A stretch of DNA of 64,000 bases from Escherichia phage vB_EcoM_ASO1B. Numbering within the stretch: the first letter of the stretch is position 1; each line of letters begins with the position of its first letter. The stretch lies in sequence record MZ726792.1. One strand, given 5' to 3'. The notes beneath the pieces are model-generated. The model did no database searches. It saw nothing but the letters and a program-made list of their open reading frames with translations, and was not told where the DNA came from. The position numbers and the translations under genes are program-made. Shown piece after piece: positions 28,063 through 28,370 of this stretch.

Positions 28063-28144
28063 CGGGGCGTATCTCAGCGGTCTTCTAAACCGCCGTTAAC
28101 CGAGTAAGTGGAGTATGCGGGTTCGAGTCCTGCCGCCTCGACCA
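28063..28144 (+). tRNA. atypical tRNA-like gene (anticodon-like loop TCT, Arg?), no recognisable D-arm
   Basis: acceptor CGGGGCG/CGCCTCG with CCA, T-arm GCGGG-TTCGAGT-CCTGC, one hairpin GCGGT-CTTCTAA-ACCGC, 23-nt unpaired region. Confidence 0.35.
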
Positions 28145-28287
28145 ATTTAGTTAGCAGATTACTTAGACGACCTAAGCGGGTCTTCCTGTAAGGAGGTGGT
28201 CTGTATCTCATGTTTTCCAGAACATGTAAATAATCTGAGAAGGGGCTTTACAGTGTTGCGAAAATACGGTAAGCTTCGAATTACAGT

Positions 28288-28370
28288 ATGGGACGATGTT
28301 AAGACTCTAAGGCATGAGCAACGGCCTCCAAAACCGTTTCAAAGGGGTTCAACTCCTCCGTCCCATGCCA
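28288..28370 (+). tRNA. atypical tRNA (anticodon CCA, Trp?) with enlarged D region
   Basis: perfect acceptor ATGGGAC/GTCCCAT, CCA end, T-loop TTCAACT, anticodon loop CTCCAAA; 26 nt between acceptor and anticodon stem. Confidence 0.4.

Follow-up and report, generated by a model that had tools for sequence, protein, structure and literature searches.

The tRNA array of Escherichia phage vB_EcoM_ASO1B raises the question of whether two of its elements, which end like ordinary transfer RNAs (tRNAs) and are built differently in their cores, are tRNA genes at all. The window, i.e. the whole stretch of DNA analysed here, covers 64,000 nucleotides (nt) of the record MZ726792.1 and is 100% identical to the record of phage ASO1A (MZ726791; Ounavirinae, Felixounavirus), the window coordinate being the record coordinate plus 243. 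The first-pass annotation had singled out the two elements, designated from here on as E1 (28063-28144) and E2 (28288-28370), and had proposed three readings for them, i.e. tRNAs with a non-canonical D region, tRNA-derived regulators or decoys. Of these, the first is the best supported for both elements: judging from their sequences, E1 and E2 are probably real, expressed tRNA genes with non-standard cores, charged by the arginyl- and tryptophanyl-tRNA synthetases (ArgRS and TrpRS) of the host, respectively, and completing the decoding set of the phage.

The array lies on the plus strand at 26489-31640 and consists of 25 genes according to ARAGORN and 23 according to Rfam. The tRNAs of the ARAGORN set cover 19 amino acids, with neither tryptophan nor any decoder of AGA/AGG (arginine anticodons UCU or CCU) among them. 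The loops of the two flagged elements are CUUCUAA in E1 (anticodon UCU) and CUCCAAA in E2 (anticodon CCA), the latter matching the only amino acid without a called tRNA in the array. AGA, a rare codon in the host, is the commonest arginine codon of the phage, representing 42.7% of its arginine codons (17.3 per 1000) in the 67 open reading frames (ORFs) of the window. Neither element is annotated in the ASO1A record; among the related records inspected, E1 is given as an untyped 'tRNA' in VpaE1_ev035 and as 'tRNA-OTHER' in REP11 and VivaForever, E2 being annotated in none of them. It should be mentioned that in VpaE1_ev035 (L002, LR699048.1) all the array tRNAs, including the untyped one over E1, are annotated on the strand opposite to the coding one.

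Standard tRNA finders do not resolve the two elements. ARAGORN in its default, relaxed (-ps, -ps80) and intron modes gave no valid call at E1 or E2, the latter being called as Trp(cca) only in the mitochondrial mode (-mt). The Rfam tRNA model (RF00005) scores E1 with 31.7 bits, marginally above its gathering score of 29, in an alignment where the D arm is deleted (4 nt versus an expected 15) and the variable region has an insertion of 20 nt, and the best Rfam score of E2 is 23 bits with the model of the selenocysteine tRNA (tRNA-Sec), E2 staying under the threshold of every Rfam model. The possibility that software would resolve the two as standard tRNAs in a register other than that of the manual fold, raised in the first-pass annotation, did not materialise: ARAGORN offered nothing at E1 and, at E2, just a spurious 96-nt 'Pyl(cta)' (-ps80). 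A further register for E1, with GCGG-UCUUCUAAA-CCGC taken as the D arm and the anticodon arm sought within the following 23-nt stretch, where no 5-base-pair (bp) stem with a U33 loop can be formed, was also rejected because the loop of the hairpin is precisely that of tRNA-Arg(UCU) and all five pairs of its stem covary. The parts of E1 are as follows:

28063-28144, plus strand: E1, a probable non-cloverleaf tRNA-Arg(UCU) gene of 82 nt including the encoded CCA (Rfam score, family covariance model, covariation)
28063-28069, plus strand: acceptor 5' strand CGGGGCG, pairing with 28134-28140 and including G3.U70 (family covariation)
28070-28072, plus strand: connector UAU, the putative equivalents of U8 and A9 plus U22 (invariant in 30/30 aligned variants)
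28073-28075, plus strand: 5' strand CUC of helix X, corresponding approximately to D-stem positions 23-25 and pairing with GAG at 28102-28104 (compensated pairs)
28077-28093, plus strand: anticodon arm GCGGU-CUUCUAA-ACCGC with the anticodon UCU at 28084-28086 (5/5 stem pairs change on both sides)
28094-28101, plus strand: variable-region-like bulge CGUUAACC (family consensus C-R-U-U-A-A-Y-C)
28102-28104, plus strand: 3' strand GAG of helix X, corresponding approximately to D-stem positions 10-12 (evidence as for the 5' strand)
28105-28116, plus strand: D-loop-like segment UAAGUGGAGUAU, tentatively numbered U13 A14 A15 G16 U17 G18 G19 A20 G U A21 U
28117-28133, plus strand: T arm GCGGG-UUCGAGU-CCUGC (3/5 stem pairs change on both sides; loop UUCGA invariant)
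28134-28144, plus strand: acceptor 3' strand CGCCUCG, discriminator A at 28141 and CCA at 28142-28144

The acceptor stem, T arm, CCA end and hairpin GCGGT-CTTCTAA-ACCGC recognised by eye in the first pass are thus all present, as is the 23-nt stretch behind the hairpin (28094-28116), which had been taken as unpaired and the whole element as devoid of a D arm. The length of that stretch is correct; it is, however, not unpaired, since its GAG pairs with the CUC located 5' of the anticodon arm, and although a hairpin D arm is indeed missing, half of the D arm appears to be relocated rather than lost. Of the features of the cloverleaf, E1 possesses the 7-bp acceptor stem (CGGGGCG/CGCCUCG with one G.U pair) followed by A-CCA, the T arm with a 5-bp stem and 7-nt loop, and the anticodon arm of the same dimensions with U33 and purine 37. 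A D hairpin joined by 2 nt to the acceptor is seen in neither element, E1 having no hairpin at that place and E2 a 9-nt connector.

In the invariant core of E1, the 3-bp helix X (CUC/GAG) encloses the anticodon arm and is followed by the D-loop-like AANUGGAGUA. Within the D-loop-like segment, UAANUGGAGUAU is invariant apart from the N position, and its AAGUGGAGUA resembles both the D loop AAAUGGAUA of the canonical tRNA-Arg(ACG) of the window and the D loop AAACGGAUA of the tRNA-Arg(UCU) of a Mooglevirus (Mordin). Expressed in tRNA numbering, E1 has the acceptor 1-7, U8 A9, U22 C23 U24 C25 A26 and the anticodon arm 27-43, then CGUUAACC, and 3' of it G10 A11 G12 U13 A14 A15 G16 U17 G18 G19 A20 G U A21, one U, the T arm, the acceptor and A73 CCA; the numbering of the D-loop-like segment and the three-dimensional mapping based on it are proposals drawn from the comparison of sequences. 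Such an architecture appears to fit a transposition of the tRNA positions 10-21 to the 3' side of the variable region.

E1 belongs to a family of 40 distinct variants from 70 loci in at least seven phage groups, collected by BLAST and pattern scans of IMG/VR. Its BLAST relatives, 83-90% identical and almost always unannotated, come from unrelated phages; the carriers include jumbo phages (Asteriusvirus and the SE_PL type), Demerecviridae (Sugarlandvirus and Serratia phage Kamaji), Vequintavirinae/Mydovirus, Stephanstirmvirinae (phi92), a Vibrio phage and Ounavirinae, as well as many IMG/VR contigs, and in several phages genes of HNH endonucleases adjoin E1. In an alignment of 30 sequences, 99.2% of the cells in the helices of E1 are paired and 15/20 pairs change on both sides, values reached by none of the 500 shuffles (0/500) and not approached by the slid controls. 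Six of the seven acceptor pairs are compensated, the seventh, G7-C66, being among the invariant or nearly invariant features together with UAUCUCA, the anticodon loop, CRUUAAYCGAGUAANUGGAGUAUG and UUCGA. The covariance model built for the family scores the E1 of the window with 100.9 bits and the members with 93-103 bits, ordinary tRNAs reaching at most 32 bits. It also yielded two intermediate relatives, identified here by our handles and their coordinates, L067:2689-2763 and L092:13348-13426. A scan of one genome per species over 185,579 bacterial and archaeal species revealed a single true E1 copy, located next to other tRNAs on a 36-kb contig of a metagenome-assembled genome, and no match was found in 5,426 complete genomes of E. 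coli. The E1 family is thus essentially phage-only.

Helix X reads CTC/GAG in 38 variants and CAC/GTG in two (L013 and L063), and, the search patterns having left the 5' side of E1 free, still all the 38 GAG variants carry CUC and both GUG variants CAC. The two exchanges are independent, L013 being a Vibrio phage and the nearest relatives of L063 (L055 and L034) keeping CUC/GAG. In the divergent UCU copy (L092:13348-13426) the helix is GC/GC, and it is retained in the ACG copy (L067:2689-2763), which has the same layout with a bulge of merely 3 nt (UCA) instead of CGUUAAYC; the bulge CGUUAACC is therefore not essential to the E1 scaffold. A GUUAA motif that E1 has in common with E2 was also considered and judged likely to be due to chance.

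Concerning the identity of E1, a search with its invariant 3' core in which the anticodon was left free retrieved UCU (loops CUUCUAA and CUUCUAC) and one CCU only, the 40 variants having the loops CTTCTAA (35), CTTCTAC (4) and TTCCTAA (1). With the relatives included, the scaffold has been seen only with the arginine anticodons UCU, CCU and ACG. The ACG copy is on the plus strand of L067 (2689-2763), and in L092 a CCU copy (12999-13077, plus strand) and the divergent UCU copy (13348-13426, plus strand) stand side by side, none of these being called by ARAGORN. The bacterial arginine identity set consists of A/G73, A20, C35 and U/G36 (PMC9976931). C35 and U/G36 do not vary among the 40 variants or in the two divergent relatives; a purine serves as discriminator in 37/40 (G 23, A 14, U 2, C 1; A in the window), and CCA is encoded in 25/40. 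In E1 the invariant GG is followed, as it is in canonical D loops, by an A that never varies (UGGAG) and that may be the counterpart of A20 for ArgRS, a candidate assignment made from the alignment.

The position of E1 in the arrays points in the same direction. In Mooglevirus (Mordin, Sf18, ESh21), a canonical tRNA-Arg(TCT) called by tRNAscan occupies the slot of E1, bounded by a conserved leader and by a conserved flank before E2, and E1 is missing; likewise, Arno18 has a canonical Arg in the E1 slot. Most of the arrays of 15-24 tRNAs that carry E1 have no canonical Arg(tct). With the canonical tRNA-Arg(UCU), represented by the syntenic Mooglevirus gene and by argU of E. coli, E1 shares the loop CUUCUAA, the standard T arm, the 7-bp acceptor, the purine at position 73 and the encoded CCA; the D-loop motif AA-N-U/C-GGA is common to both, and several E1 variants have the same anticodon stem, ACGGU/ACCGU, as the tRNA-Arg(UCU) of Mordin. 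Unlike the canonical tRNA, E1 has the 5' strand of the D stem and the D loop 3' of the anticodon arm and variable region, and is therefore, on paper, a three-way junction. It should be added that the E1-carrying arrays of the IMG/VR loci L022, L025, L053 and L067 contain ARAGORN genes of the type 'tRNA-???' with 2-nt anticodons (ga, gt, tg), which suggests more irregular tRNAs in these clusters.

The second element departs from the standard in a different manner, its parts being the following:

28288-28370, plus strand: E2, a probable atypical tRNA-Trp(CCA) gene of 83 nt including the encoded CCA (ARAGORN -mt, covariance model 108.5 bits, covariation)
28288-28295, plus strand: acceptor 5' strand AUGGGACG, forming 8 bp with 28359-28366, with A1-U72 and with G73 at 28367 (paired in 10/10)
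28296-28304, plus strand: connector AUGUUAAGA between acceptor and D arm, 9 nt versus the standard 2 nt (7 extra)
28305-28318, plus strand: D arm CUC-UAAGGCAU-GAG (middle pair U-A replaced by A-U in 4/10)
28320-28338, plus strand: anticodon arm AACGG-CCUCCAAAA-CCGUU with the anticodon CCA at 28328-28330 (4/5 pairs change on both sides)
28344-28358, plus strand: T arm GGGG-UUCAACU-CCUC with a 4-bp stem (outer pair G-C replaced by U-A in Sf18 and L078)

The acceptor AUGGGAC/GUCCCAU, the G-CCA end and the anticodon-like loop CUCCAAA described in the first pass are all confirmed, and the 26 nt counted there at the site of the D arm do lie between a 7-bp acceptor and the anticodon stem as then drawn. 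The D arm itself is nevertheless not missing, the surplus being the 9-nt connector that precedes the real D arm CUC-UAAGGCAU-GAG. The ten distinct homologous sequences are 100% paired, with 8/20 pairs changing on both sides and none doing so in the slid controls, and the unconstrained minimum free energy (MFE) fold of E2 is the proposed structure. In the acceptor, both partners are exchanged at 1:72 and at 2:71, and the eighth pair is G-C throughout; GAUGUUAAGA of the connector is invariant in the 10/10 distinct homologues from Felixounavirus, Mooglevirus, and Yersinia and Pectobacterium phages; and in the D arm, in which a C-G pair is U.G in one sequence, GG is retained in the loop. The anticodon arm is paired from 26:44, which covaries (A-U, G-C, G.U), to 30:40, and the positions 31 and 39 are always mismatched (C31.A39, or C.C in the Yersinia and Pectobacterium phages), so that the anticodon loop is effectively of 9 nt, with U33, CCA and A37 invariant. 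The variable region has 5 nt, and the T stem can be counted as 5 bp only by admitting an A.C mismatch.

Homologues of E2 were found only in the Ounavirinae, i.e. in Felixounavirus, Mooglevirus, Suspvirus, a Yersinia phage and a Pectobacterium phage; the pattern GACGATGTTAAGAYAC retrieved from viral contigs mostly chance matches in coding sequences, only those in Ounavirinae being real. Looser relatives with the anticodon CCA were retrieved by the covariance model at L053:3627-3704 (minus strand) in a BIS47-type Klebsiella phage and at L059:1310-1387 (minus strand) and L029:9267-9344 (plus strand) in the phi92 type. They have connectors of 7-10 nt, D stems of 5-6 bp with 3-nt loops, T stems GGGG/CCUC and mismatches in the acceptor, and ARAGORN calls no Trp in their three arrays. 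As for tryptophan identity, E2 matches 8/9 bacterial determinants (G73, A1-U72, G3-C70, G4-C69, G5-C68, A9, C34-C35-A36), the sole deviation being 2:71, which is U-A instead of G2-C71; the Yersinia and Pectobacterium copies have G1-C72. A long D stem of the tRNA-Sec type (AUGUUA...UAAGGCAU) was tried for E2 and rejected, as it is destroyed in the Yersinia and Pectobacterium copies, which keep ACAC/GUGC.

With the 8-bp acceptor and 4-bp T stem, together a 12-bp branch, E2 resembles the (8/4) tRNAs (Mukai et al. 2017), such as the allo-tRNAs and the 8/4 tRNA-Ser/His of phages and bacteria, which have been seen in phage tRNA clusters (Mukai et al. 2017). Those described are, however, of the Ser, His, Cys or Sec types, in many cases with a long variable arm. 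E2 is of the type Trp(CCA), and its variable region of 5 nt, connector of 9 nt and open pair 31.39 are all foreign to that class.

Both elements are preceded by a promoter:

27830-27858, plus strand: sigma-70-type promoter TTGACA-17-TATAGT (11/12 consensus matches; annotated as promoter in MZ726791)

This strong promoter is conserved in Felixounavirus and Mooglevirus, there is no plus-strand terminator between it and 28800, and its position suggests that it starts the transcription unit of E1, E2 and the tRNAs downstream. The two elements would accordingly be transcribed as parts of a polycistronic tRNA precursor, in which RNase P would cut their 5' ends, the 3' ends carrying the encoded CCA. 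E1, charged by the host ArgRS, would read AGA (and AGG), and E2, charged by the host TrpRS, would read UGG. A role of E1 in translation is the best explanation because of the arginine-only anticodons, the identity bases, the synteny, the AGA usage and the promoter taken together.

How E1 could work despite its order of parts can be proposed from the known fold of tRNA, the tertiary contacts of which are U8-A14, 9-12-23, 45-10-25, A21 near 8-14 and 46-48, and G18/G19 with 55/56. The 5' strand of the D stem and the D loop (positions 10-21: GAG-U-AAGUGGAGUA) would have been shifted from their place ahead of the anticodon arm to a new one behind the variable region, U-CUC (22-25), which is the 3' strand, and A26 staying in place. 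With CUC in place and GAG moved, the D helix would still form and could stack on the anticodon stem, and the GGA of the D-loop mimic could reach the T loop and present the A20-like base to ArgRS. The new backbone junctions (9 to 22, 21 to 49, and variable region to 10) would each join positions that are neighbours in the standard L, so that an L shape is plausible for E1. E2 would keep the order of the cloverleaf, its departures from it being the 8-bp acceptor and 4-bp T stem, the 9-nt connector replacing 8-9, the Watson-Crick pair 26:44 and the open 31.39.

Several points weigh against seeing E1 and E2 as functional tRNAs. The literature search found no experiments on their expression, processing, charging or ribosomal use. 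A20, the main ArgRS determinant in E. coli, sits in E1 in a D loop of a different covalent context. A canonical Arg(tct) is present beside E1 in L041 and L062 only, and E1 is therefore not always a simple replacement of it. In the E1 of the window, all the bacterial alanine determinants of the acceptor (A73, G2-C71, G3.U70 and G4-C69) are present and, judged by these bases, it might be mischarged with alanine. Helix X has a rival in a 3-bp mini-hairpin (28100-28102/28109-28111, alignment columns 38-40/47-49), which is part of the MFE fold and compatible with all the main-family sequences; it overlaps helix X at one G only and is kept neither in the ACG relative (L067) nor in the divergent UCU relative (L092), and is not preferred here. 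For E2, the open 31.39 pair and the 9-nt connector have no characterised functional precedent. Finally, an artificial tRNA without the D arm was degraded by polynucleotide phosphorylase (PNPase) in E. coli, turnover being the limiting step (PMC11551756), so that the stability of E1 is not guaranteed.

Among the other explanations, the one that survives best, an unlikely one on balance, holds that E1 and E2 are tRNA mimics with no part in translation, serving as decoys or sponges for tRNA-targeting nucleases, aminoacyl-tRNA synthetases or modification enzymes, or as punctuation in the processing of the precursor. Non-canonical cores and invariant segments would suit a protein-binding surface, E1 is restricted to phages, and host defences cleave tRNAs, D loops included, the phage tRNAs counteracting this. 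That L041 and L062 possess a canonical Arg(tct) besides E1 is in line with such a role as well, and an arginine-specific tRNase such as colicin D would also explain why only arginine anticodon loops occur. Yet E1 replaces the canonical tRNA-Arg(UCU) in Felixounavirus and most large arrays, and its scaffold, found with three arginine anticodons and keeping C35 and U/G36, tracks the identity elements of ArgRS and the codon boxes. Moreover, the acceptor stems, the purine discriminator and the encoded CCA are kept under covariation, and E2 is the only candidate for the one amino acid missing from the array.

It is less probable still that the E1 of the window is, wholly or partly, an alanine acceptor that would insert Ala at AGA or act as the partner of an RNA resembling transfer-messenger RNA (tmRNA), encoded upstream, in a process similar to trans-translation. 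Its acceptor CGGGGCG/CGCCUCG with A73 fits the above bacterial alanine determinants, and 120 nt upstream, on the same transcript, is the conserved tag frame ANDNVFLAVA*, which lacks a start codon. G3.U70, A73 and a canonical T arm are common to the window E1 and the tRNA-like domain of tmRNA, both of which also lack a hairpin D arm, and E1 follows the tmRNA-like tag RNA. G3.U70 persists in one subgroup of enterobacterial phages across four different 1:72/2:71 contexts; it is nevertheless found in just 7/40 E1 variants, 3:70 being elsewhere G-C, A-U, U-A or C-G. The tag RNA of Mooglevirus precedes a canonical tRNA-Arg without G3.U70, and in other phage families it is absent upstream of E1. In contrast to the tmRNA domain, which lacks the anticodon arm and continues through P2 into the mRNA-like domain, E1 has a full, closed and covarying anticodon hairpin with arginine anticodons, and alanine at the commonest arginine codon of the phage would be highly deleterious. 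E1 as an alanine or tmRNA-type tRNA-like domain was rejected, since the family does not conserve G3.U70 and the presence of the tag RNA does not depend on E1; it remains a caveat for the window copy.

For E2, a tRNA-Trp(CCA) that would also read UGA, i.e. a natural suppressor of the Hirsh type for programmed readthrough of some UGA stops of the phage, is a very improbable alternative. Changes in the hinge of the E. coli tRNA-Trp (A9C, G24A) or an unpinned anticodon stem permit the reading of UGA (PMC13092985). Like these variants (Hirsh G24A, A9C, 4-bp anticodon stem), E2 is altered in the hinge and anticodon-stem region, the hinge heavily so (9-nt connector, A10.C25, and U11.G24 in Arno18), and its anticodon stem is open at 31.39. 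The known variants, however, unpin 27:43 or change single hinge bases, whereas in E2 27:43 is paired and covarying (A-U or U-A), 26:44 is paired too, the mismatch is at 31.39 and the connector is inserted. The stop usage and readthrough extensions in the window give no sign of UGA recoding, the 12 TGA-ending ORFs having short, unremarkable in-frame extensions and TAA accounting for 52/67 stops. Lastly, pseudo-tRNAs in decay, remnants of rearrangements in a cluster where homing endonucleases abound, could be suspected from the rejection by standard finders, the HNH endonuclease genes next to E1 in several phages and the pseudo labels of neighbouring tRNAs in some records, but are effectively refuted by the extensive compensatory change and near-perfect pairing across lineages, incompatible with neutral decay, as well as by the invariance of long single-stranded segments and the spread of E1 over unrelated phage families.

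The surroundings of the two elements contain additional unusual RNAs. The leader of about 200 nt between the promoter and E1 (27866-28062, plus strand) exhibits a tmRNA-like resume region, AAAAUAAAU-GCA, its tag frame (27908-27940) encoding ANDNVFLAVA*. Homologues of this tag RNA with 72-81% identity occur in Kuttervirus, in Klebsiella, Erwinia and Serratia phages, and in 339/5,426 complete E. coli genomes, where they are located in the Q-holin gap of lambdoid prophages and in 247 places on plasmids. The tag peptide is kept via synonymous changes (ANEEMYLAVA*, ANDNTFLAVA*), a start codon in frame with it is missing from all five lineages, and a hairpin 3' of the tag shows three compensated pairs. 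The Rfam tmRNA model gives only 16 bits and ARAGORN no tmRNA for the tag RNA, no tRNA-like domain of the alanine type was identified in it, and around the tag element in other replicons neither Rfam nor ARAGORN found complete tmRNAs. In phage AYO145A (L003, KR014248), a 46-residue 'hypothetical protein' similar to wV8_gp050 is annotated across this leader at 285-425 (about 27884-28024 of the window, minus strand), and is probably spurious given the RNA-type covariation and the plus-strand tag frame.

Upstream of the promoter, in a gap without any called gene, there is a permuted tRNA-shaped element (27303-27434, plus strand). It consists of a closing helix AGACCGU/ACGGUCU at the site of the anticodon stem, a variable-arm-like hairpin, the T arm GAAGG-UUCGAUU-CCUUC, the 3' strand of the acceptor, a loop of 2-8 nt, the 5' strand of the acceptor and the D arm GUGU-AAUGGUA-GCAC, in this order. 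Its acceptor halves covary in three genera (ACTCGGC/GTCGAGT in the window, ACCCTTC/GAAGGGT in Michonne and ACACGTT/GGCGTGT in EcSzw_1), the shape of the MFE fold is the same in all three, and the loop of Michonne contains G-CCA. In the Citrobacter phage Mordin (L016), an unannotated element of 121 nt (421-541) lies between the canonical tRNA-Arg(TCT) and the flank matching the window from 28145 onward. It has the acceptor GGTCAAG/CTTGACT, the T arm GTAGG-TTCGACT-CCTAC and G-CCA, and the 9-mer CGAGTAAGT in common with the E1 of the window; its interior of about 75 nt fits no tRNA model, and neither folding nor any of the ARAGORN modes gave a resolution. This stretch of the Ounavirinae is evidently a hot spot of unconventional tRNA-derived RNAs.

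Long inverted repeats are found directly upstream of E1 (28021-28059, plus strand; ATCTTTAAGGGC...GTCTTTAAAGAT) and directly upstream of tRNA-Leu(tag) (28632-28729, plus strand), the latter giving spurious Rfam matches to plant microRNAs (MIR473, MIR5298); both may be hairpins for the processing of the precursor. The tRNA-Leu(tag) itself (28728-28806, plus strand) is marginal, with 30.5 bits in Rfam and acceptor mismatches in the ARAGORN call, and is labelled as 'tRNA-OTHER/pseudo' in several related records.

According to the view currently held, cytosolic, bacterial and viral tRNAs are all cloverleaves differing in the sizes of their arms, and armless or re-folded ones occur naturally only in mitochondria (PMC11551756, PMC7609411); no phage or viral example appears in a 2020 review of natural tRNAs of non-canonical type (PMC7609411). 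The closest parallels to E1 are the mitochondrial tRNAs without the D arm (the mammalian and nematode mitochondrial tRNA-Ser(AGY/UCU)) and the synthetic mini HisT, all of which, like E1, have no hairpin D arm and keep the acceptor, anticodon and T helices. The mini HisT demonstrated that EF-Tu and ribosomes of E. coli can use a fold without the D arm (PMC11551756). In the mitochondrial tRNAs, however, the D arm is simply missing, a connector of 4-5 nt takes its place, the shape is a Y and the contact between D and T loops is lost, whereas E1, with 79 nt, retains both a D-like helix that covaries and, at a different site, a mimic of the D loop whose GG-containing segment is invariant. Natural examples come from mitochondria and depend on adapted partners, E1 being phage-encoded and destined for the bacterial cytoplasm. 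The analogy is a functional one only. A full-text literature search retrieved no description of either scaffold; it reached few subscription journals, and an older report, e.g. in the classical T5 tRNA literature, is possible. What is rated as new here is the covalent topology of E1 and the combination of deviations in E2.

A bolder proposal, which we regard as tentative and rather doubtful at present, is that E1 would be the first natural non-cloverleaf elongator tRNA outside mitochondria, with the positions 10-21 transposed, L-shaped, charged by ArgRS and active on the ribosome. It would have spread horizontally among virulent phages, often beside homing endonucleases, its rewired D region escaping tRNA-directed defences or the quality control of the host, and E2 with its Mydovirus/Justusliebigvirus relatives would represent a second independent case, that of a tRNA-Trp. 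Both scaffolds offer compact, sequence-defined starting points for the engineering of orthogonal tRNAs.

Since E1 and E2 are missed by the standard finders, the inventories of phage tRNAs, the analyses of codon compensation and the statements on 'missing isoacceptors' are systematically incomplete, which concerns the Felix O1-like, T5-like, phi92-like, Mydovirus and jumbo phages. If E1 functions, it would be a natural test case for the tolerance of the L shape to covalent topology, for the reading of A20 by ArgRS, for the handling of such a molecule by RNase P and EF-Tu, and for the selection of a tRNA fold by phages, the evasion of tRNA-targeting immunity being the obvious hypothesis.

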